Shown piece by piece: positions 17,395-63,129 of a stretch of DNA of 64,000 nucleotides. The translations under genes and the position numbers were made by a program. The stretch spans positions 4,479 through 68,478 of the forward strand of contig JAKFXC010000062.1 in NCBI GenBank assembly GCA_021731625.1, read 5' to 3'. Every line of letters begins with the position of its first letter. Position 1 is the stretch's first letter. Source of the stretch: Candidatus Omnitrophota bacterium. GTDB lineage: Bacteria > Omnitrophota > Gorgyraeia > Zapsychrales > Fredricksoniimonadaceae. The notes beneath the pieces are model-generated. The model saw nothing but the letters and a program-made list of their open reading frames with translations. It had not been told where the DNA came from and did not search any database.

Positions 17395-17477
17395 TTTTTT
17401 CTTAATGCTGCATTCATTTCGGTTCACATAGAATAAAGGTCCAAGCATTTAAAATTAGTTAATTTAGGAGATGAATT

Positions 17478-17735
17478 ATGGCCGTTTTTAAGTCTATGGA
17501 CGGATCGCCTAAGGCCTTTCGCATCCTGCGTTTTTGTTATGTGGTTTTATCTTTGATTGCCGGATTGGACAAATTTTCTAATTCTTTGGTCAACTGGACC
17601 GCGTATTTGTCGCCGATCGTCAGCAGCAAGATGAATCCGTGTGCATTTATGAAGTTCGTGGGCGTCGTCGAAATCGCCTCCGGACTTTTGGCCATTGTCA
17701 ACCCCCGTAGTGCTGGTTATGTGATTGCCGCCTAG
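17478..17735 (+). CDS. DoxX-family membrane protein, interrupted by in-frame TAG at 17733-17735 (frame stays open to 17861)
   Basis: Two TM helices before the TAG. After it the frame continues LWGIILNLLTIPGYYD...LALANLARDHQHV without another stop for 41 codons, completing a typical ~127-aa DoxX. Confidence 0.5.
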   Translation: MAVFKSMDGSPKAFRILRFCYVVLSLIAGLDKFSNSLVNWTAYLSPIVSSKMNPCAFMKFVGVVEIASGLLAIVNPRSAGYVIAA

Positions 17736-17879
17736 CTTTGGGGGATCATCCTCAACCTTTTGACTATTCCCGGCTACTATGACGTCGCGGCGCGAGACTT
17801 TGCCTTGGCTCTGGGAGTGCTGGCCCTGGCCAATTTGGCCCGGGATCATCAACATGTTTAAATTGACTAAAGGGTCTAC

Positions 17880-19937: not shown

Positions 19938-19938
19938 C

Positions 19939-44884: not shown

Positions 44885-45337
44885 TTGTACAATGGCGCTG
44901 TGAATGGCGCCATTGTCTTTTTTTTAACTGTGTCGATGTCCCTCTTAAGCAGCGGGCCCTTGCAGGCGGACCCCTATTCCGTCAAAAAATACAGTCCGAT
45001 TTCTTTAAAAATTGAATTGCCCAAAGACACCTATGCCGTGGGCGAGCGCATCGACGCTAAAATTGTGGTGAGCAGCACCCGCGGCGGGGGTTATCCCGCC
45101 ACATTCAATATCCGTCTCTACCATGGCAAAGACCTTTTCGATGAATACCGGACCAATTTTCCGCGGATTTTTATGGGCCGCACCGAATATGCCTTAAATG
45201 ATTTTGGCATCCCGCCGTTTAATGATTCTCCGGCGGCGGTGGGGGACTGGAACATCAGCATTTTGCAGCAAGACCTGGATGTGTCGAACGCGGCGTGGGC
45301 GACCATCCATGTGGTGATGCCGGAAAGGGAAGAGTAA
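44885..45337 (+). CDS. Hypothetical exported protein
   Basis: Hydrophobic N-terminus; no recognised domain. Confidence 0.35.
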   Translation: MYNGAVNGAIVFFLTVSMSLLSSGPLQADPYSVKKYSPISLKIELPKDTYAVGERIDAKIVVSSTRGGGYPATFNIRLYHGKDLFDEYRTNFPRIFMGRTEYALNDFGIPPFNDSPAAVGDWNISILQQDLDVSNAAWATIHVVMPEREE

Positions 45338-45855
45338 TGCCAGACCTGGACCTGGAAAAAATTTATCTGCTCTTTATCCAATATGGCATGAACGTGCTCG
45401 CTGCGGTGGTCATTTTTATCATTGGCCGCTGGGCAGCGCACCTTATCTCCAACTTTTTTGGGGCTGTATTGGAACGGACCAAGGTCAACTTGACCTTAGT
45501 CTCCTTTGCCAAGCACTTGGCTTTTTACGGGATCATGACCTTTGTGATCATTGCCGCGCTGAACAAGCTGGGGGTGGAAACCACGTCGTTCATAGCGGTT
45601 TTGGGGGCAGCTTCTTTGGCGGTGGGGCTGGCTCTGCAGGGCTCCTTGTCCAATTTTGCCTCGGGCGTGCTGCTTATCGTGTTTCACCCGTTTAGAGTGG
45701 GCGACCACATCGAGGCCGGCGGGGCGAACGGCCGGGTGGTGGAGATCCAGATTTTTAATACCCTGATGGTGACCGATGACTATAAACGCATCATTGTACC
45801 CAACTCCAAAATTACCGCAGATAAAATTGTCATTTTTCCTCCTGCAGCTGCTTAA
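45337..45855 (+). CDS. Small MscS-family mechanosensitive channel protein (TM3 + beta-domain only, 172 aa)
   Basis: The pore-helix motif AVLGAASLAVGLALQGSLSNFASGVLLIVFHPFRVGD..E is the MscS TM3/beta-domain signature. Confidence 0.7.
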   Translation: MPDLDLEKIYLLFIQYGMNVLAAVVIFIIGRWAAHLISNFFGAVLERTKVNLTLVSFAKHLAFYGIMTFVIIAALNKLGVETTSFIAVLGAASLAVGLALQGSLSNFASGVLLIVFHPFRVGDHIEAGGANGRVVEIQIFNTLMVTDDYKRIIVPNSKITADKIVIFPPAAA

Positions 45856-45930: not shown

Positions 45931-48710
45931 ATGTTAGATTATCTATATAAGAAGATGGTCAGCCTGGCGCTAGTCACCGCCTTTGTCGGCTCTTTCGTGT
46001 ATTTACCCCCATCTCAGGCCCACGCGGATGTCCTTTTAGGGCTGCCTGCCCCCGGTACTATGGTCAGCTTAAGCCCCGGCTATGCCACAGCTTTAATCAA
46101 AGGTTTAACCCTTCGTAAAGACAATCCTTTTTTGTTTGATTTCGTGGTGGACACCGGGGATAGCGGCCTCTCCGCTGAGGCTTAAAAATAGAAGGGGACC
46201 GTTTAGTCAAATATTTCTTTGCCTGTTTGACCATTCCTGAAAAAGATCTCTGGGTCAACTTAAGCCCCTATGAAAAAGATCGAATAGTCCCGGAAGCCTT
46301 AGGACAAACCGCTTTGGGCCGGGATCTACTCGCCCAAGACTATTTCCTCAAACAATTAACCGCTTCGCTGATTTATCCAGAGAAAGGCCTGGGCAAAACG
46401 TTTTGGGACCGCGTCTATGCCCAAGCCCAGCAAAAATTTGGGACTTCGCAGATTCCCGTCAATACTTTCAATAAAGTCTGGATCATGGCAGATAAAGCCA
46501 ACGTTTATGAGAGCGGTCAAACCGCCTTTGTGCTCGACGGTCATTTAAAGGTGATGCTCGAAGAGGACTACCTAGCGCTGCAGAAGAATGCCAAACCGAA
46601 ACAAAATGCCGGGACCTCTCAAATTGTCCGCGAAATCCCGGCTTCCATATCAACGGCTCATGCCCAGGAAAGCCGGGATTCCCTGCTGGCTAAAAGTATT
46701 CTGCAGGAAATCATCATCCCGGAGCTTGAGCGGGAAGTGAATACGGGTAAGAATTTTGCCACTTTGCGCCAAATTTATAATTCCCTTATCCTGGCCAGCT
46801 GGTACAAGAAGAATCTCAAGGAAGCATTACTCAATGAAGTTTACACCGATAAGAGCATGGTCAAAGGGGTGGATCTTTCTGACCCTTCTATAAAAGAAAA
46901 GATTTATGAGCAATATCTGAAAGCGTATAAGCAAGGCGTATTTAACTATATTAAGGAGGAACCCCGGGGTGACGGGCAAACTCTTCCTAAGAAGTATTTC
47001 TCCGGTGGATTTGGCGTTGCCCAGAATTTTCAGGCCACGTACCATTCTAATTCTCCTGGCAGTAGACCACTCTTAAATAGAGCCATGCAAAGCCTTTCAA
47101 AGACCTTAGCGGTGGTTGCCGTTGCGTTGGTGATGAATAGTCCGTTAGCTGTTTCGGCCGCTGGCTATGATGCGAAAACAGACACCATTATTGATTTTAG
47201 CGGGCGAGCGCACAAGGCTCCGACTTTGGATGAAATGATAGAGCGAGGTATGGATCCGAGGGATCCTCGGAGTTTCCTGCCCCCAGATTATTTTCGTGAT
47301 CTTTTTGGATTTGAAGAAATGATGCTGGCAGATCCTAAAATAAAGACGGAGGTCCTGAGAAGGATAGCGGAGGCGGTCAACCCGCGTGGGGCAATGTCCG
47401 CCGAAGAACTGGCGTATTTAACCAAATTTTCCAGCGAATTGTTGAGGAGACTGGCAGGATATGATCAGCCTCCTTCGCCGTGGTATACCGCACCAGGAGT
47501 AACTATTCCCAATGATGTCCAAGTCGACGCTCAAAAGGCAAAAAGAACGGCGGGTTTCAAAACAACCCAAGAGTGGGTGGATTATTTGGAAAACGAACTG
47601 CGCTTACCGCGGTTGATGGTTGAAGAATTGAGGGAGCTCAATGAAAAAGGCAAAGATGTTTTTGCTATCATCGATGCGTTGCCCCTGAAAGGATTCTCAC
47701 CACGGGTCGCCGATTTAGCCAGAGGGTTTCTCAAGGCGAGGTTTGCCAACGATCAAAAAACCCAGCTGCAGACGATCATGGACTTGATAAGAATACGAGA
47801 GGAAGCCCTAATTCTACGATCAGATGATCTGCTTCTGCTGGCTGTTTTTAAGGCGGGGTATTTTACCATACTCGAGACGAAGCGATTAGATCAAATAGCT
47901 GGTATTGCCGCAGAGGATGTAAGCCGCTATAACAGTGTGTTTTTTGGTCATTTGCTGGCCCAAATGATGGGGGACTCAGACCAAAAAGCGGAATTAAAGC
48001 AACGCATCAGGCAAATGTATGTGACAGCGTATGCCCGCGCATGGGCAGCCAAGCGAAACACCCTAAACGGACTATTTGCGGACAACGGTATTTACACCCG
48101 ACCCATGTTTAATTCCGCAGGCATGGACAACACCGAATTGCGGCGTATGAATGACATAGCCCAAGGCATTATCACGGCGGCGACGGCCTTAAGACTAGCC
48201 AATGGCAGTCAGGATCGCCTGGAGTCTTTAATCAGAGAATGGGACAAGGCTAAAGGCAATGTCTCATTTGCTTTCTCGAGAATTTTCCATGCCGTAGTCA
48301 TGGGACGACAAGCCGGTGATGTGCAGAATATAGATTTCCCAGGAATATTGGACACATTGAATGCTCTCCCGCCCAATAGAAGACCGGACCGTGACGATCT
48401 TCGAAGATGGGCCGAGCTTGTCCAAAAAAATAGAACTAAGCAAGAGAAGGCAATGGTGGCGCCGGACGAGGCCGATCAAGCCGTAATCACGGAGACCAGC
48501 GATGCCGTATCACCCGGCGGTATCGACTTAAAAACGGCCAACCTGGCCATGACGGTCACCAAAGACGGGAACGGCGGTGTGCAGGTGCTATTTGACCCGT
48601 TACTGCTGGAGGATCTCAGAACTCAAGGTATAAAATCTGCAAACCCCATCATTGTGGATATTAAGCTCATGAGTTCGGCGCAGATTCCCGCTCTCCTTTC
48701 TACACCATGA
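45931..48710 (+). CDS. Giant-protein family paralog 1 (~925 aa if the frameshift is repaired): signal peptide + shared N-domain + unique middle + shared C-terminal module; frameshifted at 46181-46189
   Basis: ORFs 45931..46185 and 46227..48710 are collinear with paralogs 2 and 3: ...DSGLSAEA | LKIEGDRLVKYFFACLTIPEKDLWVNLSPYEK versus LSGEALKQESLKLIKYFLAGLTVPQKDLWVNLSPYEK. One extra nucleotide in the ctt-aaaaa run would restore the frame. Confidence 0.6.
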
Positions 48711-51700
48711 GTCTACGACGCTATATTCTTATTTTGATAATCAGCACAAACTTGATGGCTCCATTGCCGGCACCGCAGGCCTCCGAACTGATTTTGCCGC
48801 AGCCGGGCAGTATGCTCACGCCTACAAAAGCATACAATTCGGTATCGGTCAAAGGCCTAACCATTGACCCTAAAAATCCACTGCGATTTAGTTTTATTGT
48901 TGAACCCGGGGATACGGGATTAAGCGGCCTGCAGCTTAAAGATGAATCCCTCAAGCTTATTAAATATTTTCTTTCGGCATTAACCATACCGGAAGACGAA
49001 ATGTGGGTCAACCTTTCGCCTTACGAAAAAAATCGCATCATTACCGATCAATTCGGATCAACTCAAATGGGCCGGGATTTATTGGCCCAAGACTACATCC
49101 TTAAACAGCTCAGCGCTTCTTTGATCTATCCGGAACATGCTTTAGGAAAGGCGTTTTGGCAAAAAGTATATTCTCAGGTTAAGGATCAATTTAGAACCAC
49201 GCAAATGCCGGTTAATATGTTCAACAAAATTTGGATCGTTCCGGACCAAGCGTCAATCTATGAGCATCAAAACAGCGCGTTTATTGTTAACTCGAGATTA
49301 AAAGTGTTAATGGAACAAGACTATCTGGCCACTCAAAAGAATGATCAGGTTATTTCAAAAGAGCCGCAGGATCGCGGGCTATCTCAAATCATACGCGATA
49401 ATATCGTGCCTGCGATCGAAAAAGAGGTCAACGAAGGGGCCCACTTTGCCAATTTACGGCAAATCTATCAAGCCATGATATTAGCGGTTTGGTATAAAAT
49501 TCGGCTCAAAGACAGCCTCTTGGGAAAGACGTATGTCAATTTGCATAAAGTCAAAGGTGTGGCACTGGCGAACACCAAAGACAATGACATGATTTATCAG
49601 AATTATCTTCGGGCTTTTAAAAAAGGAGTCTTTAACTACATCAAGGAAGAAGAGAATTTGGCAAATCACGAAATGGTTTCCAGAAAATATTTTTCCGGGG
49701 GATTTATGCCGGCTCAATTAGCCCCCATCGTAAAGCAAGGTTTAGTATTCAACCTGCCAGATAGGGCGATCCTAAGCCCAGAGGCTCAAACTGTCACCTG
49801 GGAAGCGGAGGCACTGACCTCGGACCAGGGGATGACTGGAGAATTGCAACAAAGTCTAAAAATGTCGGATCAAGATTTTCAAGTCCTGCTGGGTAGACTG
49901 GCCAAAGATAAGTACATCACCGCAAATTCGGAAGTGGATTTAGAGTTTAAAGGCCTGAAGCCGGCTTACGCCAGGCTTTATCCTGCTCACCATGACCGAA
50001 TTTCAAAGTTACTTTCCGACGGACGTTTAAAACGGCTGGAAAAAATGGAACAAGACCGCAGAGCTTCCATCAAGCAGGAGCTAGGTGATTGGACAGAGAA
50101 AGTCAATGCGGCGGTAAAGCGGAATCAGCAAACAGAAGCAACCAAAAGGGAGGCCTTGGTCCAAAAATGGACACCAACATTTAAAAGATACGGCATTTAT
50201 TATTTTTATTTATTTAAATATATGTCAGAACGTATATTCCACATGCCGTTTAGGTATGAGCTGGAAGATTTTCTCCAAGAATCTGTTGTTGCTTGCCATG
50301 GCGTTGCTGAATTGGGAAAGACAGATGACATTTCGTTTATCATAGCTGCCCAACGGCATTTTCTGCAGTTTTTCGCGGAAGAAGACAGGATACCCTACAA
50401 AACAAAAGTTGGCGTGGTTACAAAGTTGCGGGCTTTGATCGAAAATTATTCTGCCTCCAAGCTTCAAGTGGTGCCAAATAGGTACCTTGTGCCTGCGCTA
50501 CGAGCTGAGTTTCCTAAGCTCCAGCGGTATGTACGCCCCAATGACCCGTTGGAAGGGGAGGTTGAGGCGGGTCATTTCGGATTAATTCCCCTGGAGGAAA
50601 CGTCACGGGAACTATATTTGCAAGCGGCTCTACCTAGAGTCTTGGATCAAACGAAGAAAGCCAATCGTCTTGTCGCTCTGCAATTTGGCCTTGGTGATGA
50701 CATAGAAAAGAGCAATGCATGGATTGCCAAAGAGTTGGGGTATCAGTTCGAAAATAGTGTGCGCTCAAGGTCGTACGAAATCCGGGTGACATTAAGCAAG
50801 AATAAGGCCTTGCGGGACCTTACTGTTTATGATCATCAATGGGTACTGTTCAATGATACTCTAGATTTTTTGCGTTATCAAGAGCGCGCCGCACAGAGTT
50901 CCTCGCCCAAAAAAATTCCTCATGAGCCGGCATTGAATTTTGAAGACGAGCGGCGATTGATGGATTTGGTGCATTTGTGGTTTGCTGCAAGTCAGCTGCG
51001 ATTTCTGCGGGCACTGTATTTAGGAGACAATACCGATAGCTTCAACGAGGGGGTGCAACGAGAAGCTAAACGAAGGATCAATTTATTCCTCACGCTCGGT
51101 GTGTTGTCTGAATTTGGTTTGGGGGAGCAATTAATCCCCACCATTGTCCGCTTGAGCGCCGAAACCCCACTGCAGCGCATGTTTCGTCATGCGGGAGTAG
51201 AGCAATTGTTAAGAATTTCCAATGGGGACATTAATGCCGTGGTTGAATTCGTCATGCAAATGTTTCCCGAGGTATATAAGGAAGAGGATGTTCGGCGTTT
51301 AGCTCGAGGCTATTTTGATTTACCCAAGATTCCGCAAAGTCCCCATGTTGCTCCTCAACAAGTCCTTAGAATTGTTCATAACGTCATTAGTAAAATGGAA
51401 GGTGGCGAGAGTAGACGTAGATATTTGGTCAAAAGACGCTTAGTCCGTGATCTCTACTACCATTCGATCGTAAACAATACATCGCAAGCATTAGAGGGTC
51501 TTAATGCTGCTATCGGCGAAGCCGGCAGCGATCAAGAATGGCAAAATCTTTTAAAAGACACGTATGACTACTATCAACAAGCGACCGCGTTTTATCCACG
51601 CGGCTTTCAGGAGGAAACTGAGGTGGGTCAGGAGCCGATGCTGCCCGCGCAGAGATTTGGTATTTGGGAGGCAGTTTTGTCCCTATCCAATCCTCGTTTG

Positions 51701-53347
51701 GAAAGTGCGGTGCATATGAGTGAAGCCCGTATCGGCAAAACCATTATGGCGATTTTGTCCGTCTTTAATGTGCGCAAGCCGAATAGCAATGACTATGCGG
51801 TGCGGAAGGTCCTCTACACCACCACCAATAGCGCCAAATATGAGGTTTACAATGAGCTTGTGCGGCGTACGAATAAAGAGTTGGATTTGCATGTTATTGT
51901 GGTCGACCGTCAAAACGGCAATCGTGAGCAGCAAGTCGAAGAAGCCATTAAGTTAGCGGAAGATCCAACCAAAAACGTGGTGTTAATCGCCAATTATGAC
52001 GCCGTGAGATTATCACCGGAGGCATTTTCTAAATTTGCTCCTGACGCGCACATTGTTGACGAGGTGGAGTCGCTAAAAAGTGGTGATGCCAAGCGCACTC
52101 CTATCATTTTCGGTATTCCAGCGAAATATCGGGTTGCGGTCAGTGCCCGCGCCGTAGTCAATCGCTCAGAGGATGTCCATGAATTAATTTTGTGGACCCA
52201 GCACCGCGAATTCTTGCCTTGGGGAAGAAAGAAAGAAGACGCATTGCAGGAGCTTAAAGACATGTCCCAAGATCGAGTATTTGAGGTGTTAAGCAGGAAT
52301 CAGAGTCGATGGCGCCGTAGTACCGTTATGCCTGAGGTCAAAGAACCCGTATTTACCAATGAGCCTATTGAATATTCACTGGAGCAGCAACAAAGCATTC
52401 TGAAAATCAGCAGCGTGGATGAATTTGAGGATTGGCAATTAAACGAAGCGCGGGAAGACAAGGGAGACATGAACGATAGTGTTCTGACAAGGATTGATTT
52501 ACTGAGAAGAGCCAGTATTGAGCTGGGCTTGGTTCAAAAAGAAGCCTATTTCGGACAATATATGGACGCGTCCCCAAAAATTCAGCGCCTGGATGCCATC
52601 ATTGACAATGAATTCAAGAGTCAGGGAAAAGTATACGTCGAAGCAGATTTTCCCGAAGCCATTGACCGATTGGTGGCGCGTTATGCCCAAAAATACGGGC
52701 CGCGAGCAGCGGCAGGAATCCATGGTCAAACGCTCGTTAAGGACCGAGTTGATATTATTCGCCGGTTCCGCAGTGACCCGGAATTAAAAATATTGATAGG
52801 GACACCGCATACAACAGCTTCTTCCTTGAATTTGTCTCAGCTGCGAGGTAGTTCTTTCCACAATTCTTTGTTAGTGCGATTAGATTTGCCCGCTCGCAAT
52901 GTCGATGATGGCGATCGTTTGATCGATCCTTGGCAAGATAAGCAAGTCCGGGTGATCTCATTAATAGGCGTCTTTCGAAAGGATGATCTTGCCAAATACA
53001 AGCGATCCATTGATGAGCAGTTCTTCGACTTGCGGTCGGAGAAGCAACGGGTCTTCGAGCATGTTATTGATGGAAAACCCCTCGTTTCGGATGAGGAAAC
53101 GGAAGAAATTAAGGATATGGTTGAGGAGTTTATGGAGCCGTCGGAAATCGACGCTGCCATGATGGAAAAGGGTGGTATCGATTTAAATTCCAAATCCTTG
53201 AAGCTGCACATGAATGGTGATCAACCGGCTGCCTCGTTTAGGGGTACGTTCCTCCCTGCATTTGATGGTCTTTACCCGGTGCTTGTCGATATACAGCCAG
53301 CGAATACTGGTTCGAAATACCCCCCCGGATTATTTGAAAAGCATTAA
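48707..53347 (+). CDS. Giant-protein family paralog 2 (1546 aa, intact): signal peptide + shared N-domain + SNF2-like SF2 ATPase module + shared C-terminal module
   Basis: Shares the N-terminal ~330 aa with the other two paralogs. Internal SNF2 motifs: I SEARIGKTIMAI, II HIVDEVESLKS, III RVAVSARAVVNRSEDVHELILW..FLP; helicase-C-like GIHGQT..ILIGTPHTTASSLNLS and DKQVRVISLIG. Confidence 0.7.
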   Translation: MSLRRYILILIISTNLMAPLPAPQASELILPQPGSMLTPTKAYNSVSVKGLTIDPKNPLRFSFIVEPGDTGLSGLQLKDESLKLIKYFLSALTIPEDEMWVNLSPYEKNRIITDQFGSTQMGRDLLAQDYILKQLSASLIYPEHALGKAFWQKVYSQVKDQFRTTQMPVNMFNKIWIVPDQASIYEHQNSAFIVNSRLKVLMEQDYLATQKNDQVISKEPQDRGLSQIIRDNIVPAIEKEVNEGAHFANLRQIYQAMILAVWYKIRLKDSLLGKTYVNLHKVKGVALANTKDNDMIYQNYLRAFKKGVFNYIKEEENLANHEMVSRKYFSGGFMPAQLAPIVKQGLVFNLPDRAILSPEAQTVTWEAEALTSDQGMTGELQQSLKMSDQDFQVLLGRLAKDKYITANSEVDLEFKGLKPAYARLYPAHHDRISKLLSDGRLKRLEKMEQDRRASIKQELGDWTEKVNAAVKRNQQTEATKREALVQKWTPTFKRYGIYYFYLFKYMSERIFHMPFRYELEDFLQESVVACHGVAELGKTDDISFIIAAQRHFLQFFAEEDRIPYKTKVGVVTKLRALIENYSASKLQVVPNRYLVPALRAEFPKLQRYVRPNDPLEGEVEAGHFGLIPLEETSRELYLQAALPRVLDQTKKANRLVALQFGLGDDIEKSNAWIAKELGYQFENSVRSRSYEIRVTLSKNKALRDLTVYDHQWVLFNDTLDFLRYQERAAQSSSPKKIPHEPALNFEDERRLMDLVHLWFAASQLRFLRALYLGDNTDSFNEGVQREAKRRINLFLTLGVLSEFGLGEQLIPTIVRLSAETPLQRMFRHAGVEQLLRISNGDINAVVEFVMQMFPEVYKEEDVRRLARGYFDLPKIPQSPHVAPQQVLRIVHNVISKMEGGESRRRYLVKRRLVRDLYYHSIVNNTSQALEGLNAAIGEAGSDQEWQNLLKDTYDYYQQATAFYPRGFQEETEVGQEPMLPAQRFGIWEAVLSLSNPRLESAVHMSEARIGKTIMAILSVFNVRKPNSNDYAVRKVLYTTTNSAKYEVYNELVRRTNKELDLHVIVVDRQNGNREQQVEEAIKLAEDPTKNVVLIANYDAVRLSPEAFSKFAPDAHIVDEVESLKSGDAKRTPIIFGIPAKYRVAVSARAVVNRSEDVHELILWTQHREFLPWGRKKEDALQELKDMSQDRVFEVLSRNQSRWRRSTVMPEVKEPVFTNEPIEYSLEQQQSILKISSVDEFEDWQLNEAREDKGDMNDSVLTRIDLLRRASIELGLVQKEAYFGQYMDASPKIQRLDAIIDNEFKSQGKVYVEADFPEAIDRLVARYAQKYGPRAAAGIHGQTLVKDRVDIIRRFRSDPELKILIGTPHTTASSLNLSQLRGSSFHNSLLVRLDLPARNVDDGDRLIDPWQDKQVRVISLIGVFRKDDLAKYKRSIDEQFFDLRSEKQRVFEHVIDGKPLVSDEETEEIKDMVEEFMEPSEIDAAMMEKGGIDLNSKSLKLHMNGDQPAASFRGTFLPAFDGLYPVLVDIQPANTGSKYPPGLFEKH

Positions 53348-53386: not shown

Positions 53387-56300
53387 ATGAACAAATCCAA
53401 AAAAACCGCATACCTTGCTTCCTTTATTATAGTTTCTTTCGTCACCAGTTTTTCGCAAACGCCGGTCTACGCCCAGGAACTGATCCTGCCGTTGCCCGGG
53501 ACCATGGTCACGGCCAGCCCTAAATTTGCGCCAGCCATTATACGCGGTATCCAGTTTAACGCCAAAAACCCCTTCCAATTTGATTTTATCATTGACCGCG
53601 GGGACGACAAGCTCTCCGGGGAGGCTTTGAAACAGGAGTCCTTGAAACTCATCAAGTATTTCCTGGCCGGCTTGACTGTGCCGCAAAAGGACTTGTGGGT
53701 CAACCTCTCGCCGTACGAAAAAGGCCGCATTGTGCCGGACGGCTTTGGCCAAACCGACATGGGCCGCGACCTGTTGGCGCAGGATTACCTTTTGAAACAA
53801 CTGACCGCGTCGCTGGTGTACCCAGAAAAAGAATTAGGCAAAAAGTTTTGGGAAAAAGTCTACGCTAGGGCCAAAGAGCAGTTCGGTTCGGCCCAAATAC
53901 CCGTTAATACCTTTAATAAGGTGTGGATCGTGCCGGACAAGGCCGTGGTGTTGGAGCGTAAAGGCGGCGTGTATGTGTCTCAAAGCCATTTGAAGGTGAT
54001 GCTGGAACAAGACTACCTGGCTTCTCAAAAAAACGTTAAGGTAGCTAGGTCCCAGAAGGGGATTACCACTGCTTCAGACAAGGCCGTGTCTTCCCAAACC
54101 ATCCGCGACATCATTCTCCCCGAGATCGAACAGGAAGTCAATGAAGGCGCCAATTTCGCCGCCTTGCGCCAGGTGTTCAATTCTCTAATTTTGGCCATCT
54201 GGTATAAAAAGAACCTCAAAGATGCGGTGCTCAATAGAGTTTATGCTAACTCCAACAAAATCAACGGCATTGATATTGAAGATAAAGACAGCAAGGAGAA
54301 AATTTACCAGCAGTACCTGCAGGCGTTTAAAAAAGGTGTGTATAGCTATATTAAGGAAGATGCTACGCCTGCGGGTCAGTCAGCCGCCAGGAAATATTTT
54401 TCCGGCGGCGTCAACGTGGAAAACTTGGTTGTGGAAACCGAAAAAGAAAACCAGGCCATGGCCCTCACCATCGCTGAACGGAGCCGCAATGGCGATCTGG
54501 CTCAAATTAGCTGGTTGACCCAGGAGGTTAAAAATCCTAGGTATAGACAAAATTACACACAGGCCCGGTATACCTTCTTAATGAGCACCAAAGGCTATCA
54601 GGAGAGCCTGGGTCGTAAATTTGCACTGCAACTGGATGCTAATCGTGGTGATGGTGTGCTCTCGTATCATCAGCAATTATTGCAAAAAGCATTTAGCCTC
54701 GACCTGAAGAAGCAGAAGGAATTCCTGGCTGCATATAAAGATTATTTTAAATATAACCGCTATGGGATGGAAAATTCATCGATCCCCCGGACCTCGAAAA
54801 ATTGGTGGGTACGGAGCCCGCATTCGGATACTACGAGGGTGAGCATTTCACTTCCTATGCGACCGATGAACTGCTGGCTGTGGATTATCTTAAGACTTTT
54901 GCCCCGGCAGATTTTGACCGCGAACTCAACTGGCTGCTCGTGGAAGTTCCCGCCTTAACGGACGAGCAGGATATGAGTTCCGAAAAGCTGCTGCAATATT
55001 TGGACGAGGCCATTAAGCGCTTGTTCTCCTTTGCAGACCTTAAGCTTCATACGGATGTCCGCTTTCAAGTAGAGCAAGACTTACGCACCTATTTTTATAA
55101 ACAGCTGCTAAATCGCAAAAGTACTTCCCAGCGTATAATCCGGTTGTCCAACACCACGTCGCGCGATGGCCAGCAATCTAACAAAGGCACAAACCTGACA
55201 GGTCTTGACCAGTGGAAACTATTGTCCTGGATTGTAAAATTTGGCAATGTATCCACGATTGAATCCTGGGGCGGGGCTGCAAATCAATCCGCGGTCTTAA
55301 AGACCAAGCGCATTTATCAAGTGCCCGGACAGGAAGAGCCGCTGAAAAATTGGGCCGAGGACCCTTTTTTTAATTTAAGAGAGCAGACAAAATTGTTGGA
55401 AGATAACCTCAAGGAAGCTTTTGGGGAAGACCTGGATCGGTTGGAGGATGATGACCGCGAAAGGATTTTCAATCGGTACAAGCGCGACTTTGACCGCAAA
55501 ATCTTATCCGAATTTGACCTTAATGCGATTCTGAAAAGATACAATCTCAGTGAACAGGTGAAGAATCGCGTCCGTAAAGTCTATGAGATTAAGCAGGAAA
55601 TGCTTTTACGCGGGACTTTTCTGGTTGCCCTGGATCAGTTTCCGGAACCGGTGGTGAAGGAATTTGTGGAGGTGGCATGGCGGAATGGAGTCGATGTTTT
55701 TCGTATTTTTGATGCCATGAACCGGATCAACGAAATCGATGGGCCGCTTAAATACGCCCGGGCCCTGGGAGCTAAAGTCCAGCCTGCCATTCATTACACC
55801 AAAGGTTTTCCTAGGGGGATTCCTAAATATGTGGAGCTAGCCAAGGAATTGGTCAGAATCAGCGGGCACGCCCTGGATAGTTTAGTGATCAAGGATGCCG
55901 CAGGCCAGTTGGAGCCGGAGGAAGCCTATAAACTGGTTAAAGCTTTGCGTCAGGCGGGCATCACTGTTCCGATTCAAATCCATACCCATGATACCAATGG
56001 TAATCGGCAATTGACGTTGTTGGAAGCTATCCGAGCCAACGGGGAAGATTATCCCATTATTGTGGATGTGTCCACCGGTGAGTTGGCCGCACCCTTGGCC
56101 CAGCCCAATGACCGCCATTTTTTAAACATTGTGCAGGGAACAAAGTGGGAGGGGACGCTCATTAAAGATGTGGATTTTGAGCAAATGGAGCAAGCGGAAT
56201 TTTTTATAAAAAGCGACATTAACCTTCACAGTCCCTCTGTGCCAATGACGACCGAAGATCGTTTACGCATCGTGAGAGCGAACATTCCCGGAGGTTTAAA

Positions 56301-57489
56301 AACGAATAATGACAATGATATCAACAATGCCTTACATATGTATGAAAAACTCATCCGTAAAGTTTTCGATATTATTTTTTGGGATCCGCGTGGGAACTTG
56401 ACCGCCAAGGGCCAGGCCTTTAGAGCTGCCTTAGTACGGCTTATGGAGGAAGAAATACCAAGGGTTCGTAAGGACATGGGCAATTTCTCATTGGTCACGC
56501 CCACCAGCGAGTGGGTGGTCAAGCAGTCGCTAAATAATGTTATAGGGTGGATTATTGCAGACCAAACGGTTTTGAACACCAGCAATCCGCAGCAGTGGCA
56601 GCTGTCCATCAAAGAAGATCTCCTCCGTAAAAACCGTAAGAGCCAATATCTGTACAGTGTTGGTTTGGCCGCTCATTTGCATGAAGATCTGCAAAATTAC
56701 CTGGTTGAGTGGACCCAGGACACGGAATTGCAGGATATGTATCCGGATATAAACACAGAGTTGCTGGCTTGGGCGTTTGATATCGAAGGCATTAATATTG
56801 AATTGGATGATCAAAATCGGTTGACTGATAGTCCGCTCGAAAAATTTCAAAATTTAAGAAAATTTTTTGAAAAAAGATTTGTGGATGTGCCTACCATCAA
56901 AGTTTTGCATAAAATGGAAAAATTACGGGAAGGCGGCGATGCGGACGCTCTAGAGAATCTGGAATCTCAAGAATTTTCTTGGGACCTGATCAATAGGATT
57001 TTAAAAAACGAAAAACCCATGAATATCATCAAAAGGCCGGAAGATTATGTCCAGAACTACCAACAGCTGCGGAATAAATATCCTCAGGTCAAGGGTTCAC
57101 CGGAAGATAAAATCTTGGCCAGAGTTTTTCCCAAGGAAGGTCAGTTTTCAAATTTAATTGAAACCAGGAGGATCTTAGAAGAGCAGATCGACCAAGCCCG
57201 CCAAAACTTGCCGGCAGATCATGAGAAGATTCGCAGTTTAGCTGCGGCTTATAAACGTGCCGGCGGTCGCAGCGGAGAGCGGCGTAGCGCAGCGAGTGCC
57301 GCCATGATCGGTGATGACAAAGACGGCGGCATCAATTTGAATCCGGATTTTTATGATCTGCAGATTAATCGCGAAGGTAAAAGAGCTATTGATTTTGCCA
57401 TGCAGGGACCTGCTTTAACTCCGCAGCAAGTCCAAGGCCTCACCCCTGTCATCCTCGGCGTCAAGATCTTGACGCATTTGGAAATTTAA
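53387..57489 (+). CDS. Giant-protein family paralog 3 (~1367 aa if the frameshift is repaired): signal peptide + shared N-domain + pyruvate-carboxylase-type carboxyltransferase TIM-barrel domain + shared C-terminal module; frameshifted in C5 tract 54784-54788
   Basis: ORFs 53387..54958 and 54802..57489. One extra C gives a continuous ...YGMENSSIPPDLEKLVGTEPAFGYYEGEHF. The internal region NGVDVFRIFDAMN...AIHYTKG...LVIKDAAGQLEPEEAYKLVKALRQAGITVPIQIHTHDTNGN...DVSTGELA aligns with the PC/OadA carboxyltransferase domain. Confidence 0.6.
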
Positions 57490-57514: not shown

Positions 57515-58063
57515 ATGGATTTCGAAGCGGTTTCCAAAATGGTCATGGATCAGTTTGGGAAACACCAGGTGCGGTGTGCCATTATCGGTGGTTTTGCCCT
57601 GCATGCGGCGGGGTTCCATCGGGCTACCGTCGATATTGATTTTCTTGTCCATGTTCAGGACATGCCGAAGGTTAAGGCCACTTTGGCAGCTTTAGGGTAC
57701 GACCTTAAGCATGAAAGCAAAGACGCCGCCAATTTTTGGGGTAAAATGGATACCTTGGGCAACATTGATTTCATCATTGCCCACCGCAAGTATGCTCTGG
57801 CCATGCTTGAGCGTTCTAAACCTTTTGAAATCGTCAAAGGCTGCACAGTCAATGTGATTGTCCCCGAGGATATCATTGGGTTAAAAGTCCAAGCGTTTAG
57901 CAATGATCCTGACCGCTACCGCCAAGATATAGCCGATATTTACTGGTTAATCAAGAATTACCGTGAACAATTGGATTTAAATTTACTCCGGGAATATTTC
58001 GGATTATTTAATTGTTCAGATAAGTTAGAGCAAATTTTAAAAGAGACGAACAATGCTCAGTGA
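57515..58063 (+). CDS. Minimal nucleotidyltransferase-fold protein (AbiEii/AbiGii toxin-like family)
   Basis: The IGGFALHAAGFHRATVDIDFLV motif is GG(x)...DxD of the NTase fold, as in AbiEii-type proteins. Confidence 0.55.
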   Translation: MDFEAVSKMVMDQFGKHQVRCAIIGGFALHAAGFHRATVDIDFLVHVQDMPKVKATLAALGYDLKHESKDAANFWGKMDTLGNIDFIIAHRKYALAMLERSKPFEIVKGCTVNVIVPEDIIGLKVQAFSNDPDRYRQDIADIYWLIKNYREQLDLNLLREYFGLFNCSDKLEQILKETNNAQ

Positions 58064-58519: not shown

Positions 58520-59031
58520 TGTTTGAACCAGTTCTGTTCCAGGCATTGCCGCAGCTGCAAGCGGGCCCGATAGAGCAGTACCCATAGATTAGTCGAAGAT
58601 ACCCCTAAAATCTTACAAATTTCCTCGCTTTGCATCGCTTCCAGTTTGCGCAGACGGAAGGCTTGCGCAGCTTTGTCCGGCAAACGCCCCATGCAGTCCT
58701 GGAACAGCTGCCAAAACTCCTTGTTTTCCAGCAAGGCGGCGGGGTTAAATTGCCAATTGCCGGGGGCTTTGGCCAAATGGCCATAATCGGCATTGTCAAA
58801 AAATTGCTCCACGTGCATGTCAGCTTCGACCAGTTGCGAGGCCGGCACTTCCCTATATGTAAGACGCAGATAATCTGCGATTTTATGTTTGAGGATGCCG
58901 ATCAACCAAGTTTGTTCGCTGGATTTACCTTGGAAATGGGCACGGTTCTGCAAAGCAGAAAGCAAGGTTTCCTGTACCAGGTTTTGGGCTTGGTCTGGCT
59001 GGGCGATCGATTTGAGGGCGTAGGCATACAA
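58516..59031 (-). CDS. ECF-subfamily RNA polymerase sigma-70 factor (TTG start)
   Basis: Region 2 (LVQETLLSALQNRAHFQGKSSEQTWLIGILKHKIADYLR) and region 4 HTH (SEEICKILGVSSTNLWVLLYRARLQLRQCL). Confidence 0.8.
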   Translation of the reverse strand: MYAYALKSIAQPDQAQNLVQETLLSALQNRAHFQGKSSEQTWLIGILKHKIADYLRLTYREVPASQLVEADMHVEQFFDNADYGHLAKAPGNWQFNPAALLENKEFWQLFQDCMGRLPDKAAQAFRLRKLEAMQSEEICKILGVSSTNLWVLLYRARLQLRQCLEQNWFKQ

Positions 59032-59199
59032 GCTCGCCGTATAAATCGACCCAATCCTCGGGATCTGAAGAAGATGCGGAAGACATCAGCCCTCATTCAA
59101 CCTGAGACGGACAAAAAAGGCAAGAATTTTGTAAGGATTTGCTGGTATAATCGACTAATACGCAAAGGCAAAGAAAATCAGGAAAGGCCGGTCCCATTG

Positions 59200-60738
59200 A
59201 TGAATGCCCCTGCAAACCATGATATTCTTAATTTCATAGGATTCTTTTTCGCCGGCTTGACAGTCAACCTTACCCCGTGCGTGTACCCCATGCTTGCGGT
59301 GACGGCGTCGCTATTTAAGCCAAAACCTGAATTGCGGGAAGACCTTCGGCATTCTTTTGCCAGGGCCCTGGCGTATTTTTTGGGCATTGTCTTTACCTAT
59401 TGCGCCCTGGGGTATTTTGCCGCTTCGACAGGTAAGTTATTCGGCAGCGCTCTGCAAAGCCAGTGGGTGCAGGGGGTTGTCGGCCTGTTCATGCTGGGTT
59501 TAGCCCTGTCTATGTTTGGCTTTTTCCACTTGCGTATTCCGGCTGGAATTCTAAGCCATCTGGGTAAATTCCGCAAAGCCGATTATCCGGGGCTGTTTGC
59601 CTCCGGGATGCTAGTCGGCGTTTTTGCGGCGCCGTGCATCGGCCCGCCGGTGCTGGCCCTGCTGGCGGCCGTGGCGGACAACGGCAATCCGCAATACGGG
59701 TTCACGGCGTTCTTGACATTTTCTTCCGGGTTGGGGTTGCCCTATTTGCTTTTGGGGACTTTTGAGAATTTGATTGTCAAATTGCCCAAAACTGGGACGT
59801 GGCTCATTTGGATGCAGCGTTTCTTTGGGGTGGTCTTGCTGGGTTTTTCTTTTTTCTATTTGTCGGTGGCGTTTGGCCCACATTCAATCAAGAAAAATAG
59901 GGACTCGATTTGGAAACCGTACAGCGTTGAAGCGGTGCAAGGGGCTTTGGCGGCGCATACGCCGGTCATCATCGACCTTTTTGCCGAATGGTGTTTGAGC
60001 TGTTATGAATTGGAAGACCAGGTGTTTGCCAAACCAGCGGTCAAGGCAGAGCTGGCCAAGGCCGTCACGTTGCGGGTGGACATGACGGACGTTAATACCC
60101 CGGAAAATCGGCAATTTGGCGAACAATATGAGATCATTGGCTTGCCGACGGTGATTTTTTTAGGGCCGGACGGCAAAGAGATTCGAGAGGCGCGGGTGGA
60201 GGGGGTCAGTTCTTTGAAGGATTTTTTGAAGTCGCTGGACATGCAGCAGAAAAGTTTTGGCGTAACCCCGGTAAAGGAGGGTCCGATGAGCGATGCCCAA
60301 TCCAACAGGGTCCGCATTTTTGATGCGGCGAGTCAAACATATAAGGTGGTGGACAAAGTCGTTAAATCCGACGAGGAGTGGAAGAAAATCTTGACCCCGG
60401 AGCAGTTGCGCGTGACCCGCGGCCACGGCACCGAGCGGGCTTTTTGCGCCCTGCCCACCAAGCACACCAAAGGCATTTACAAATGCGTGGGTTGCGGCAC
60501 CGATTTATTTTTGGTGGGTAATAAATTTGAGTCTGGCACCGGTTGGCCGAGCTTTTGGCAGCCGCTCGATGAGGCCAATGTGGGTACCCAAGTGGACAAG
60601 CAATTCGGCATGGTGCGCACGGAAGTGCATTGCGCACGGTGCAATGGGCATTTGGGGCATGTGTTTGATGACGGCCCACCGCCTACCGGAAAACGCTACT
60701 GCATCAATTCTGTGGCCTTGAAATTTGAGGAGGCATAA
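59200..60738 (+). CDS. Fusion protein: DsbD/CcdA-like transmembrane thiol-disulfide transporter + thioredoxin-like domain (WCLSC) + methionine-R-sulfoxide reductase MsrB
   Basis: CcdA-type TM region with LTPCVYPML and AAPCIGP cysteine motifs; Trx CXXC AEWCLSCYELED; MsrB RGHGTERAF...CVGCG...GWPSF...CARCNGHLGHVF. The ORF-track N-terminus (58630) overlaps the antisense sigma gene and is rejected. Confidence 0.75.
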   Translation: MNAPANHDILNFIGFFFAGLTVNLTPCVYPMLAVTASLFKPKPELREDLRHSFARALAYFLGIVFTYCALGYFAASTGKLFGSALQSQWVQGVVGLFMLGLALSMFGFFHLRIPAGILSHLGKFRKADYPGLFASGMLVGVFAAPCIGPPVLALLAAVADNGNPQYGFTAFLTFSSGLGLPYLLLGTFENLIVKLPKTGTWLIWMQRFFGVVLLGFSFFYLSVAFGPHSIKKNRDSIWKPYSVEAVQGALAAHTPVIIDLFAEWCLSCYELEDQVFAKPAVKAELAKAVTLRVDMTDVNTPENRQFGEQYEIIGLPTVIFLGPDGKEIREARVEGVSSLKDFLKSLDMQQKSFGVTPVKEGPMSDAQSNRVRIFDAASQTYKVVDKVVKSDEEWKKILTPEQLRVTRGHGTERAFCALPTKHTKGIYKCVGCGTDLFLVGNKFESGTGWPSFWQPLDEANVGTQVDKQFGMVRTEVHCARCNGHLGHVFDDGPPPTGKRYCINSVALKFEEA

Positions 60739-60800
60739 GGATAGCAGTTTGGCAGGAGAGCATTGCTGACTTTAACTACACATTTGCCGAGGATAAGACC

Positions 60801-61337
60801 ATGAGCGATGCCAATTATCAAAAAGCCACTTTTGCCGGGGGCTGCTTCTGGTGCATGCAGCCTTTTTTGGAAAAGCTTAAAGGGGTCAAAAAAGTCACGG
60901 TTGGCTATACCGGCGGCCAGACCGTCAATCCAACCTATGAGCAAGTGACCTCCGGCAACACCGGACATGCCGAAGCGGCAGAAGTTTTGTTTGACCCGCA
61001 GGAGATTTCCTACGCCAAATTGCTCGACGTGTTCTGGCGCAACATTGATCCCACCACCGAGAATCAGCAATTTGTGGACATCGGCACCCAGTACCGCAGT
61101 GCGGTGTATTATCACGATGCCCAGCAGAAGCGTCTGGCGGAAGAATCCAAGAAGCAGCTAGAGGCTTCAGGCAAGTTCGATAAGCCGATTGTCACTGAGA
61201 TTTCCGCCGCTTTGCCGTTTTATCCGGCCGAGAATTACCATCAGGACTATTACAAGAAAAGCCCGCTGCATTACAAAATGTACAGCACCGGCTCCGGCCG
61301 AGAGCAGTTCTTGCAGAAGGCATGGGGCAAGGACTGA
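60801..61337 (+). CDS. msrA: Peptide methionine-S-sulfoxide reductase
   Basis: Canonical GGCFWC active site, YHQDYY and the whole-length MsrA pattern. Confidence 0.9.
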   Translation: MSDANYQKATFAGGCFWCMQPFLEKLKGVKKVTVGYTGGQTVNPTYEQVTSGNTGHAEAAEVLFDPQEISYAKLLDVFWRNIDPTTENQQFVDIGTQYRSAVYYHDAQQKRLAEESKKQLEASGKFDKPIVTEISAALPFYPAENYHQDYYKKSPLHYKMYSTGSGREQFLQKAWGKD

Positions 61338-61419: not shown

Positions 61420-63129
61420 GTGGACATCCAGGATTTCAGCCGCCGCATGATCGAGCTCTTGCCCAAATGCATCCGCGGCTTTCAGGGCTACGAAAGCAAT
61501 TATCTCTCCCGAGGTCAGATCAGCTTGCCGCAGTTTTGGGCCTTGGAATACCTCTCCCGGCACGGCCACTGCCTGATGAGTGAATTGGCCGTTTTTTTGG
61601 GGATCTCCCGGCCGGCTGCCACCGGCCTCATCAACCGCCTGATCGCCCAAAAATTGGTGGACCGCCGCAGCGAACAGAAAGACCGCCGCACCGTGCGGGT
61701 CAGCATTTCCGCCAAGGGCAAAAAGATTGTTACCCACGTTTGGCAGCAAAAACGCCGCGGCATGGAAACCGTCTTTGCCAAAATTTCGGCTGCTGAGCGT
61801 AAACAGTATCTGGATATCTTAGAGAAGGTGGTCAATAATTTCAGCCCTAAAATACTGATCGGGGCGGTGGTGTTGGGGGCGGCTTTTGTGGGTGCGGATT
61901 GCGGCCAAGCACAGGAGGCCCCCCTAGCCAATTTGACCTTGCGGCAGGCTTACGAACTTGCACTCAAGCGCAGTGAAACCCTCGCCATACAAAAGCAGGT
62001 GATTGAAGAGGCGCATGGCCGGCTCAGCCAAACCATCAGCCGGTCTTTGCCGCAGGTGTCTTTTACCGACACGGAGAAATTTCAAGACCGCTTTTCCAGC
62101 TCATCCTCCTCAGAAAATAGTTCCCGGGTGTATGTGCCGACCCGGACGTTCACCTTTAGCCAACCTTTGTTTTCCGGTTTTCGAGAATTTGCCGCCATCG
62201 CTGCCAACAAAGCTGAGCGTAAACAGCGCGAACAGGAGTTGGAACGGGCTAAACAATTGCTGTTTACCGATGTTTCCGACGCCTTTTATTTGTCCATCGG
62301 CTATCAGCAGCAATTGGGCATTCTGCTCGAAGTCAATAAAGTCTTGCAGGGACGGTCCGACGAATTGAGCCAGCGGCTGTCCATTGGCCGGTCGCGCCCC
62401 AGCGAAGTGGCCAACACCGAATCCAAATTTTACCAAAACGAGGCGGACATTGAATCCTTGCGCGGCCAGCAGGATTCTTCTTTTGAACTGATGGAGTTCT
62501 TGGTCGGCCATAAAATTGAGTCCTTGGCAGAGACAAAGGTCCTGCCGGCGGGCCTTCCGACCCGGGAGGAATATTTGGCCAGGGTAGCCCAGAGGGCGGA
62601 TGTGCTGGCGGCAAAGCATGCCAGCGTGGCCGCAGAAAAAAACATCACGGTGCAAAGGGCAGGGTATTTTCCATCCGTCAATGTCACCGGCAATTCGTAC
62701 TTGAAGCGGGTGGGCCCGATAGGTGATTCGGATTGGGATGTGACCGTCAATATTTCGGTGCCCCTTTTTAATGCCAAAGAGACAGCCGGGGCCGTGACCA
62801 TTGCCAGGGCCCAGGCCGAGCAGGCTAAATTGCGCCTTAGCCAGGCCCAGCGTCAGGCCGATTTGGACATCAAAAATGCATACACTAATCTGTCGGCAGG
62901 CATGAAGCGGATGGAGGCATATCACAAAGCCGTTCAAGCCGCCGAGAAGAATTATGCGCTGCAGTCTGGTGATTACACCAAAAGTCTGGTCAACAACCTG
63001 GACGTGCTGCAGGCCTTGGAAGATCTGCAAAGCGTGCGCGGGGATTACATCTCGGTTAAAAATGAAACCCAACGGGCTTATTGGTCCCTCAAGGTAGCGG
63101 CAGGAGATATTTCCGATGACACTCTCTGA
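61420..63129 (+). CDS. MarR-family transcriptional regulator N-terminal domain fused in frame (no stop) to a TolC-like outer-membrane efflux protein
   Basis: Residues 1-145 form a MarR wHTH (MSELAVFLGISRPAATGLINRLIAQKLVDRRSEQKDRRTVRVSISAKGKKIV). A signal-peptide-like KILIGAVVLGAAFVGADCGQAQ segment follows, then OEP repeats (LTLRQAYELALKRSETL...), with no intervening stop codon. Confidence 0.6.
   Translation: MDIQDFSRRMIELLPKCIRGFQGYESNYLSRGQISLPQFWALEYLSRHGHCLMSELAVFLGISRPAATGLINRLIAQKLVDRRSEQKDRRTVRVSISAKGKKIVTHVWQQKRRGMETVFAKISAAERKQYLDILEKVVNNFSPKILIGAVVLGAAFVGADCGQAQEAPLANLTLRQAYELALKRSETLAIQKQVIEEAHGRLSQTISRSLPQVSFTDTEKFQDRFSSSSSSENSSRVYVPTRTFTFSQPLFSGFREFAAIAANKAERKQREQELERAKQLLFTDVSDAFYLSIGYQQQLGILLEVNKVLQGRSDELSQRLSIGRSRPSEVANTESKFYQNEADIESLRGQQDSSFELMEFLVGHKIESLAETKVLPAGLPTREEYLARVAQRADVLAAKHASVAAEKNITVQRAGYFPSVNVTGNSYLKRVGPIGDSDWDVTVNISVPLFNAKETAGAVTIARAQAEQAKLRLSQAQRQADLDIKNAYTNLSAGMKRMEAYHKAVQAAEKNYALQSGDYTKSLVNNLDVLQALEDLQSVRGDYISVKNETQRAYWSLKVAAGDISDDTL

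Follow-up and report, generated by a model that had tools for sequence, protein, structure and literature searches.

What would a carboxyltransferase (CT) of the pyruvate carboxylase type be doing behind a signal peptide, and could it work there without biotin? The question is raised by a 64,000-nt stretch of Candidatus Omnitrophota DNA (contig JAKFXC010000062.1, positions 4,479 to 68,478; hereafter the window, numbered from its first base), which encodes three modular proteins in tandem (paralogs 1 to 3, Table 1), the third of them with a CT barrel as its cargo. An initial annotation, made from the letters and their open reading frames (ORFs), had described this barrel as a biotin-independent CT domain, lacking an upstream motif, within a giant exported protein. 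The comparisons given below make it fairly probable that the module is a complete, divergent CT, that it is the cargo of a three-part exported protein, and that it is a catalytically competent enzyme of 2-oxo acids, likely biotin-free.

The peptide quoted in the initial annotation (EMLLRGTF...STGELA) lies at 55597-56091 on the + strand, within the CT ORF. The motif-level similarity to the CT domains of pyruvate carboxylase (PC) and of the transcarboxylase 5S subunit that had been claimed for it was borne out by phmmer, NCBIfam, hhalign and Foldseek. When the CT ORF was searched against all PDB chains (phmmer), the best sequence match was OadA of V. cholerae (2nx9, E = 6.1e-33), with further matches to the two-subunit PycB (5ks8, 3.9e-30), pyruvate carboxylases (~1e-26) and transcarboxylase 5S (6e-24). 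The NCBIfam PycB domain model matches the module with E = 8e-57, and the similarity was recovered by profile-profile comparison (hhalign; a profile of the 4 closest relatives against one of 20 canonical CTs) with a probability of 100 and E = 3.9e-55 over 349 columns, the first strand included. Of the two Pfam families named in the initial annotation, PYC_OADA was found (33 bits, above the cut-off of 27) and HMGL-like remained sub-threshold (21.7 against a cut-off of 29). The module shows the features of the DRE-TIM metallolyase superfamily: a TIM barrel in which strand 1 is followed by a conserved Arg-Asp and strand 7 by an H-x-H metal site. By homology, the module is placed inside the clade of pyruvate carboxylase, oxaloacetate decarboxylase and transcarboxylase 5S. 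All NCBIfam family cut-offs are missed, the scores being 193 bits against 402 for the PycB domain, 172 against 756 for OadA (an equivalog model), 148 against 965 for PC and 130 against 827 for 5S. Because the module falls short of these curated thresholds and lacks both the canonical biotin-side residues and a carrier (see below), it is not filed as an OadA, PycB, PC or 5S enzyme, and is treated here as a divergent, unnamed CT sub-clade.

The barrel is predicted to be complete, of CT type and with the accompanying funnel subdomain. An AlphaFold2 (AF2) model of the deposited protein P0001, made from an alignment of 52 sequences (pTM 0.74), contains all eight strands (P0001 residues 56-60, 93-99, 207-213, 242-246, 268-274, 304-308, 334-338 and 362-367), mostly with pLDDT >90, and among them are the first strands, whose existence the initial annotation had left in doubt. 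The C-terminal 90 residues of the model are disordered. Against the PDB, Foldseek returned 2nx9_A (E = 9e-19, target-normalised TM 0.75), covering the whole 451-residue chain, and 1rqh (TM 0.73). The RDAHQS motif, which had been reported as missing, is present in the form SRDGQQS, together with ESWGG, upstream of the segment first delimited; it had been overlooked because an insertion of about 100 residues parts strand 2 from MLLRG on strand 3. By alignment, SRDGQQS supplies a metal ligand (D122) and two substrate-binding positions (R121 and Q125), and it is invariant in 17 of the 19 family representatives, i.e., in all those that cover the region. The first insertion is modelled as four helices (P0001 residues 131-204, pLDDT 87-98), and the family has a second one, ~31 residues long, after PGGLKTN.

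The metal and enolate centre is kept. The Lys of KDAAG and the H-x-H of HTHD are retained, as first proposed, and the predicted metal ligands D122, K364, H394 and H396 align with D17, K178 (carbamylated), H207 and H209 of 2nx9. Invariance was assessed in 19 family representatives that are ~25-45% identical (N-terminal motifs covered in 17 of them), with 6 canonical sequences for comparison. Wherever they are covered, the family shares R121, D122, Q125, S126, E154, G157, G158, L268, R270, R301, F303, K364, D365, H394, H396, G400, P496, G498 and T566-P567. At position 501, 15 of the 18 representatives that could be aligned have Thr or Ser, and the other three (P0250, P0252 and P0254), all stand-alone homologs, have Gly. 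By alignment, D122, K364, H394, H396, R270, Q125 and T501 correspond to D549, K718, H747, H749, R621, Q552 and T882 of Rhizobium etli PC. The module thus has the catalytic residues found in the CT domains of the R. etli, S. aureus and human enzymes.

The side of the site facing biotin is different. It is taken here to be marked by Tyr628 of R. etli PC (the gate Tyr) and Met743 of human PC (the Met of KDMAG). Two canonical sets were used: a close set of 48 homologs, first compared with four close relatives of the module, and a diverse set of 132 representatives. Position 277, seven residues after the LLRG Arg, is Leu in all 18 family sequences; in canonical CTs it is Tyr in 48 of the 48 close homologs and in 87 of 101 motif matches among the diverse representatives, and never Leu. 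Position 366 is Ala in 17 of 18 family sequences, compared with Met in 109 of 117 canonical representatives. Other positions that never vary in the close canonical set are replaced too: Asn273 by an aromatic residue in most members, Ser426 by Gly in 16 of 18, Gly413 mostly by Asn and Asp162 mostly by Gln, and the positions of Glu438 and Gln494 are variable in the family. Canonical homologs without a biotin carboxyl carrier protein (BCCP) domain (P0011, P0059 and P0111) keep both the Tyr and the Met, whereas the module family has replaced both and no carrier gene was found nearby. In one canonical representative, P0255 (1,115 aa), a complete CT domain occurs twice in tandem, the motifs KDMAG, HTHCT and PGGMYTN each being present in duplicate.

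The protein contains no Biotin_lipoyl Pfam domain, and the [AVSEC]MK[ML] biotinylation motif is absent from the 7 family members checked. Whether a carrier partner is encoded separately, a point already raised in the initial annotation, is answered for the regions covered: tblastn with nine BCCP domains found none in the window or at the loci L001-L005 of its relatives, the positive control (L006) matching with E = 1e-12 to 1e-23. Pfam scans of window ORFs of at least 150 aa revealed no biotin carboxylase, BirA, OadB or OadG. What stands of the earlier description as a biotin-independent CT is that the protein has no carrier domain; biotin independence itself had been put too strongly. The lack of a fused BCCP would alone be a weak argument for it, because transcarboxylase 5S provides a precedent, acting with a separate biotinylated 1.3S subunit. 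The argument derives from the systematic replacement of residues that are conserved in biotin-dependent CTs.

Relatives of the whole module are few. When 1.84 billion representative proteins were searched with a profile, about 18 representatives matched over all 726 positions of the module (P0002-P0004, P0241-P0254 and P0297), and the next scores, of at most 194 bits, belong to canonical CTs and cover only the barrel core. These relatives fall into two tiers. The first consists of long proteins, including two of 6,260 and 7,467 aa, mostly with hydrophobic, signal-peptide-like N-termini, and its named members are all from Candidatus Omnitrophica/Omnitrophota. The second comprises the stand-alone proteins P0249-P0254 (~870-960 aa), which are without a signal peptide and show the same Leu/Ala signature; in marine metagenome contigs, P0254 adjoins a cytochrome oxidase (cox) operon. 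Four full-length relatives (L002-L005) were found when each species was scanned through one genome; of these, L003 and L005 are labelled Omnitrophota and L002 and L004 bear the label 'uncultured Planctomycetales' from an automated pipeline. Several relatives join the module to other domains in one polypeptide. P0244 (Ca. Omnitrophica, MBI2166749.1; L065 8001-16007) combines PEPCK_ATP (residues 997-1453, E = 2.6e-51) with the CT module (1904-2603), P0247 has an FBPase_glpX fragment with the CT module, and P0245 is arranged as N-domain, CT, response-regulator receiver and C-tail. A gene for a pyrophosphate (PPi)-type PEPCK is located 2.4 kb from P0003 (L001 4092-7556). The PEPCK and FBPase associations would fit an oxaloacetate- or pyruvate-like substrate, and the fusions and the PPi-PEPCK neighbour suggest a gluconeogenic theme or one centred on phosphoenolpyruvate (PEP), pyruvate and oxaloacetate.

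In the window, the module is embedded in a cassette shared by the three paralogs. Each begins with a predicted signal peptide, as do L002 and L004, consisting of a basic n-region, a hydrophobic core and a small-x-small site before a conserved LxLPxPG. The N-terminal region (~340-400 aa) is 46-58% identical among the three, and ORF 53387..54958, which encodes that of paralog 3, is 52-56% identical to the N-domains of L002 and L004. More than 1,700 N-domain homologs were found, and those with names are nearly all from Candidatus Omnitrophica/Omnitrophota, one partial match being labelled Heimdallarchaeota. The N-domain has no Pfam, NCBIfam or PDB sequence match, and its confident AF2 model matches no solved fold. 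At the other end, a tail of ~55-70 aa with the consensus GGID(L/F)N...PVIINIxP...LLGL, modelled confidently in P0123, is present in 41 of 120 N-domain family matches, many of the others being partial; it too gave no NCBIfam match and matched no solved fold. Read from Pfam accessions, the cargo carried by N-domain proteins presumably includes SNF2, CT, shikimate dehydrogenase, PGK, HAD, Macro, methyltransferases, GH26 and ribosomal S9 domains, among others. The N-domain/C-tail family is apparently very large and undescribed. L002 shows the arrangement in a single intact ORF of 1,884 aa, with a signal peptide, an N-domain, ~600 extra residues, the CT module and the C-tail, and L004 has the same order.

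The cargo of paralog 1 has no PDB sequence match. That of paralog 2, also behind a signal peptide, consists of SNF2-rel_dom and Helicase_C domains with weak similarity to ZorD/DpdE; one would hardly expect an exported protein to carry an ATP-dependent DNA translocase. An anti-phage defence role was considered and rejected: PADLOC returned nothing for the CT or the N-domain, its only results being the weak similarity of the SNF2 cargo to ZorD/DpdE and a match to AbiEii in the ORF downstream of the CT gene. A known sorting signal was likewise not recognised in the C-tail, which has no match in NCBIfam; the type IX secretion system literature mentions Omnitrophota only in a reference, and a literature search for the GGIDL tail yielded unrelated papers only. 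Polymorphic toxins join a constant part for trafficking to enzymatic parts that vary, and the N-domain proteins resemble them in that their cargo differs among homologs. Next to the CT gene no candidate immunity gene was recognised, there are no secretion genes in the window, and the protein is not filed under polymorphic toxin or secreted effector systems.

The closest described parallel is found in the long and giant multi-enzyme proteins of Omnitrophota, which the main texts of two preprints report as bearing signal peptides or transmembrane segments (bioRxiv 10.1101/2023.11.21.568195, 10.64898/2026.06.07.730766). As in those proteins, cytoplasm-type metabolic domains occur in exported or membrane-anchored modular proteins, and the CT module itself is found in the relatives of 6,260 and 7,467 aa. 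The window proteins differ in being mid-sized (~0.9-1.5 thousand aa) tandem paralogs, and the main texts of these papers describe neither the CT variant nor the N-domain/GGIDLN-tail cassette.

Paralog 3 had been presented as an exported modular protein and an atypical setting for such a barrel; the modular context with its signal peptide holds, and the single continuous giant ORF does not, the gene being split by a frameshift. ORFs 53387..54958 and 54802..57489 overlap in different reading frames, and the deposited annotation gives them as separate proteins, P0121 (523 aa, the N-domain) and P0001 (838 aa from ATG 54973). Homology in the CT frame begins at 54844 with P0002, at 54829 with P0003 and at 54775 with L004, in each case upstream of that ATG. 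Homopolymer candidates for the shift are GGG (54764-54766), CCCCC (54784-54788) and AAAAA (54797-54801). After conceptual repair of one nucleotide, the product is ~1,368 aa long and gives a single blastp high-scoring segment pair across the junction with L002 and with L004; that with L002 aligns repaired residues 391-1366 with residues 891-1852 at 41% identity, the junction being at residue 466. As homology crosses the junction and intact single-ORF homologs exist, the two ORFs are regarded as one gene with a shift of the 1-nt-deletion type. Programmed -1 frameshifting is not indicated: inspection of 54757-54800 by eye showed no heptamer of the canonical X XXY YYZ form. Paralog 1 has a frameshift of the same type near 46183 (GCTT/AAAAA), which puts its signal peptide and first ~75 residues out of frame with ORF 46227..48710.

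If the module is an enzyme of this kind, it would hold a divalent metal, bind a 2-oxo acid resembling pyruvate or oxaloacetate and stabilise the enolate, using the Asp of RDxxQS, the carbamyl-Lys position, the H-x-H, the LLRG Arg, the Gln and the PGGxxT Thr. It would most likely work without tethered (carboxy)biotin, since the biotin-side residues are replaced, no BCCP was found in the protein, the window or the related loci, and two family insertions have been added. The proton or CO2 partner that biotin otherwise provides would be supplied by the remodelled pocket together with the helical insertion. The likeliest reaction would be metal-dependent decarboxylation of oxaloacetate, or a related C-C, lyase or enolisation step at the PEP-pyruvate-oxaloacetate node. 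The predicted signal peptide points to a site of action outside the cytoplasm of the producer, which may be the periplasm, the cell surface, or a partner or prey cell.

Known enzymes frame this proposal on several sides. OadA (2nx9) is the best match in both sequence and fold, and shares the (beta/alpha)8 barrel and funnel, the metal ligands, the LLRG Arg, PGGxxT and LVTPT. Unlike OadA, the window protein has neither association nor BCCP domains, no OadB or OadG nearby, and a signal peptide in a modular protein; its CT module also has two insertions (about 60-100 aa and ~31 aa), Leu in place of Tyr, KDAAG in place of KDMAG, and the further replacements listed above. Transcarboxylase 5S of Propionibacterium shermanii (1rqb/1rqh; Foldseek TM 0.72-0.73) is similar in being a CT barrel without a biotin domain of its own. 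HMG-CoA lyase and the isopropylmalate and homocitrate synthases (Pfam HMGL-like) share the superfamily barrel and a metal-stabilised enolate logic that works without biotin, which shows that the superfamily scaffold is capable of it. These biotin-independent metallolyases differ from the module in that similarity to it is only marginal (E = 8e-4 for homocitrate synthase, compared with 8e-57 for PycB) and that the module has a PYC_OADA funnel.

Other explanations can be offered both for the split gene and for the barrel. It is possible, if on balance unlikely, that paralog 3 is a recently inactivated pseudogene, with a real frameshift that would keep the CT module from being exported in the source genome, whatever holds for the family elsewhere. 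The frameshift is in the deposited assembly, with gene calls to match, and paralog 1 carries a second one of the same 1-nt-deletion type. A consensus with errors throughout is also disfavoured by the long ORFs in the rest of the window, which are intact. Set against this are a CT frame of 2.7 kb without a stop codon or other lesion and with all catalytic motifs intact, and the position of both frameshifts at or next to short homopolymers, the typical sites of consensus error. The two ORFs could also be naturally separate genes, with the CT a cytoplasmic enzyme starting at TTG 54802 or ATG 54973, as the 838-aa database entry and the stand-alone homologs of other organisms (P0249-P0254) would have it. 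This is very improbable: homology to the relatives reaches upstream of the ATG and, once the shift is repaired, takes in 75 residues of the other frame; where the N-domain ORF overlaps the CT frame, its final ~55 residues look out-of-frame (by judgement); the CT ORF bears the C-tail that otherwise always accompanies an N-domain; and L002, L004 and P0245 are fused.

As for the barrel itself, an ordinary biotin-dependent CT subunit, fed by a separately encoded BCCP as 5S is by 1.3S, might be expected to keep the residues that are invariant in canonical CTs, the BCCP-less ones included. The family has replaced them (Tyr277 by Leu, Met366 by Ala, and N273, S426, E438 and Q494), its NCBIfam scores are far under the PycB-domain and OadA cut-offs (193 vs 402; 172 vs 756), no BCCP was found in the window or the five related loci, and the proteins that carry the module are multi-enzyme ones with signal peptides at their N-termini. 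A biotin-dependent subunit is improbable on these counts, even though canonical CTs without a fused BCCP do occur (P0011, P0059, P0079 and P0111, with only PF00682 and PF02436), the Thr/Ser that shuttles protons to biotin is retained, and the turnover of canonical PC needs BCCP-biotin in the CT site (PMC5895798). In that work, a CT construct of R. etli pyruvate carboxylase without BCCP was inactive in oxamate-induced oxaloacetate decarboxylation, which speaks against biotin-free decarboxylation of oxaloacetate by an isolated canonical CT domain (PMC5895798). The loss of canonical biotin-side residues, the large insertions and the giant proteins of 6,260 and 7,467 aa would be consistent with a pseudoenzyme, i.e., a non-catalytic metabolite binder or a structural, scaffold-like part of large surface proteins. 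This is quite improbable, since 19 representatives at ~25-45% identity show no change in any of the four metal ligands or in the Arg and Gln that bind the substrate, the pattern of an active site under selection and not of a scaffold.

A number of points weigh against a biotin-free, exported CT enzyme. A BCCP may be encoded elsewhere in the genome, beyond the 64-kb window. The signal peptide is a prediction judged by eye, and the window copy is frameshifted, so that expression of the full protein is doubtful. The AF2 alignment is rich in canonical CTs, so the match in fold is not independent of the sequence homology. The R. etli result implies that canonical CT chemistry needs biotin, and biotin-free activity cannot be assumed from the canonical enzyme (PMC5895798); such activity would require a remodelled pocket supplying a new proton or carboxyl acceptor.

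Table 1. Features of paralog 3, its companions in the window and related sequences (window positions unless a locus or protein is named).
Feature	Position	Strand	Basis or remark
Paralog 1, N-domain and C-tail, cargo without assignment	45955-48710	+	
Paralog 2, N-domain and C-tail, SNF2-type helicase cargo	48707-53347	+	
Paralog 3, CT cargo	53387-57489	+	
Predicted Sec-type signal peptide, paralog 3 (MNKSKKTAYLASFIIVSFVTSFSQTPVYA / QE)	53387-53473	+	Read by eye
Conserved N-domain, ~315 aa (VNLSPYEK...GRDLLAQDYLLKQ...RKYFSGG)	53474-54421	+	Common to the three tandem paralogs
Frameshift zone, -1 shift (1-nt deletion type) from upstream frame to CT frame	54757-54800		Three-frame translation, homology
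ORF with CT module and C-tail, 895 codons from TTG	54802-57489	+	
Predicted (beta/alpha)8 CT barrel, strands 1-8	55138-56073	+	AF2 model; Foldseek matches 2nx9, 1rqh
SRDGQQS (RDAHQS equivalent; ORF residues 120-126)	55159-55179	+	Aligned to OadA V10-S21, PycB (HMMER), hhalign
ESWGG (ESWGGA 55261-55278), matching E(C/A)WGGA	55261-55275	+	HMMER, hhalign
Family-specific helical insertion between strands 2 and 3 (DPFFNLREQT...FNRY...DRKILS...), ~100 residues	55279-55587	+	Not in canonical CTs, kept in family
MLLRGTFLVAL: pyruvate-binding Arg R270 kept; F273 for canonical Asn, L277 for canonical Tyr	55600-55632	+	
KDAAG: K364 (55891-55893), equivalent of carbamylated metal-bridging Lys; A366 for Met of KDMAG	55891-55905	+	
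HTHD: putative metal ligands H394/H396 (55981-55989), invariant in family	55981-55992	+	Aligned with 2nx9 H207/H209
C-terminal 'funnel' subdomain, PYC_OADA-like	56074-56781	+	Pfam PYC_OADA, hhalign, Foldseek
PGGLKTN, T501 equivalent to proton-shuttle Thr	56287-56307	+	
LVTPT	56491-56505	+	
Family-conserved module extension (LQNYLxxW(S/T)QD...LYP...DEDxLLxxLFP)	56782-57201	+	Kept in P0002-P0004, L002, L004; low to moderate model confidence
C-terminal tail GGINLNP...GLTPVILGVK	57325-57489	+	Common to paralogs 1, 2 and wider family
N-domain family matches	P0122-P0240		
Stand-alone homolog loci	L063 8001-10643; L064 832-3474		

The paralog cluster has a GC content of 0.45-0.48, compared with 0.50-0.55 in its surroundings, and no tRNA gene that could mark an integration site was found in the window. 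Upstream, an MscS-like channel ORF (45295..45855), seemingly lacking its C-terminal domain, ends 100 nt before paralog 1, and small overlapping ORFs near it (44885-45855) may be pieces of disrupted genes. Directly downstream of the CT gene, 57515..58063 encodes a 182-aa AbiEii-like/DUF2204 nucleotidyltransferase of toxin type, for which no partner antitoxin was identified. It is followed at 58630-61337 by a DsbD transmembrane-thioredoxin-MsrB (SelR) fusion and then MsrA, an envelope methionine-sulfoxide repair unit. In a single ORF at 61420-63129, an outer-membrane efflux protein (OEP) domain is joined to a MarR-type helix-turn-helix (residues 33-105); the two could be genuinely fused, or a stop codon or frameshift between them could have been missed. 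Elsewhere in the window (13542-22713 and 34980-36602) there is a glycogen/alpha-glucan cluster with three alpha-amylase-family proteins, a GH15 glucoamylase and a GDE-type debranching enzyme, whose named matches come from several phyla at 53-56% identity.

A wider proposal, rather unlikely to hold in full and offered tentatively, is that these sequences represent a previously unrecognised biotin-independent CT branch that uses its metal/enolate centre, a remodelled pocket and a new helical lid to decarboxylate or otherwise transform oxaloacetate or pyruvate outside the cytoplasm, as cargo of an undescribed Omnitrophota export or delivery cassette that carries hundreds of cytoplasm-type enzymes, possibly rewiring the PEP-pyruvate-oxaloacetate node of partner or prey cells. 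To our knowledge, all characterised enzymes of the CT clade use biotin as carboxyl carrier. If biotin independence is true, the sub-clade would be a natural experiment on the barrel without biotin and a candidate new oxaloacetate/pyruvate enzyme. The organisms that host the module are described as ultra-small, probably host-dependent bacteria, and the setting bears on a question left open in the main texts of the Omnitrophota giant-protein papers, namely why cytoplasm-type metabolic domains should be exported. The N-domain/C-tail cassette, with proteins of ~0.6-1.9 thousand aa that could be expressed, would offer a tractable entry to that question.

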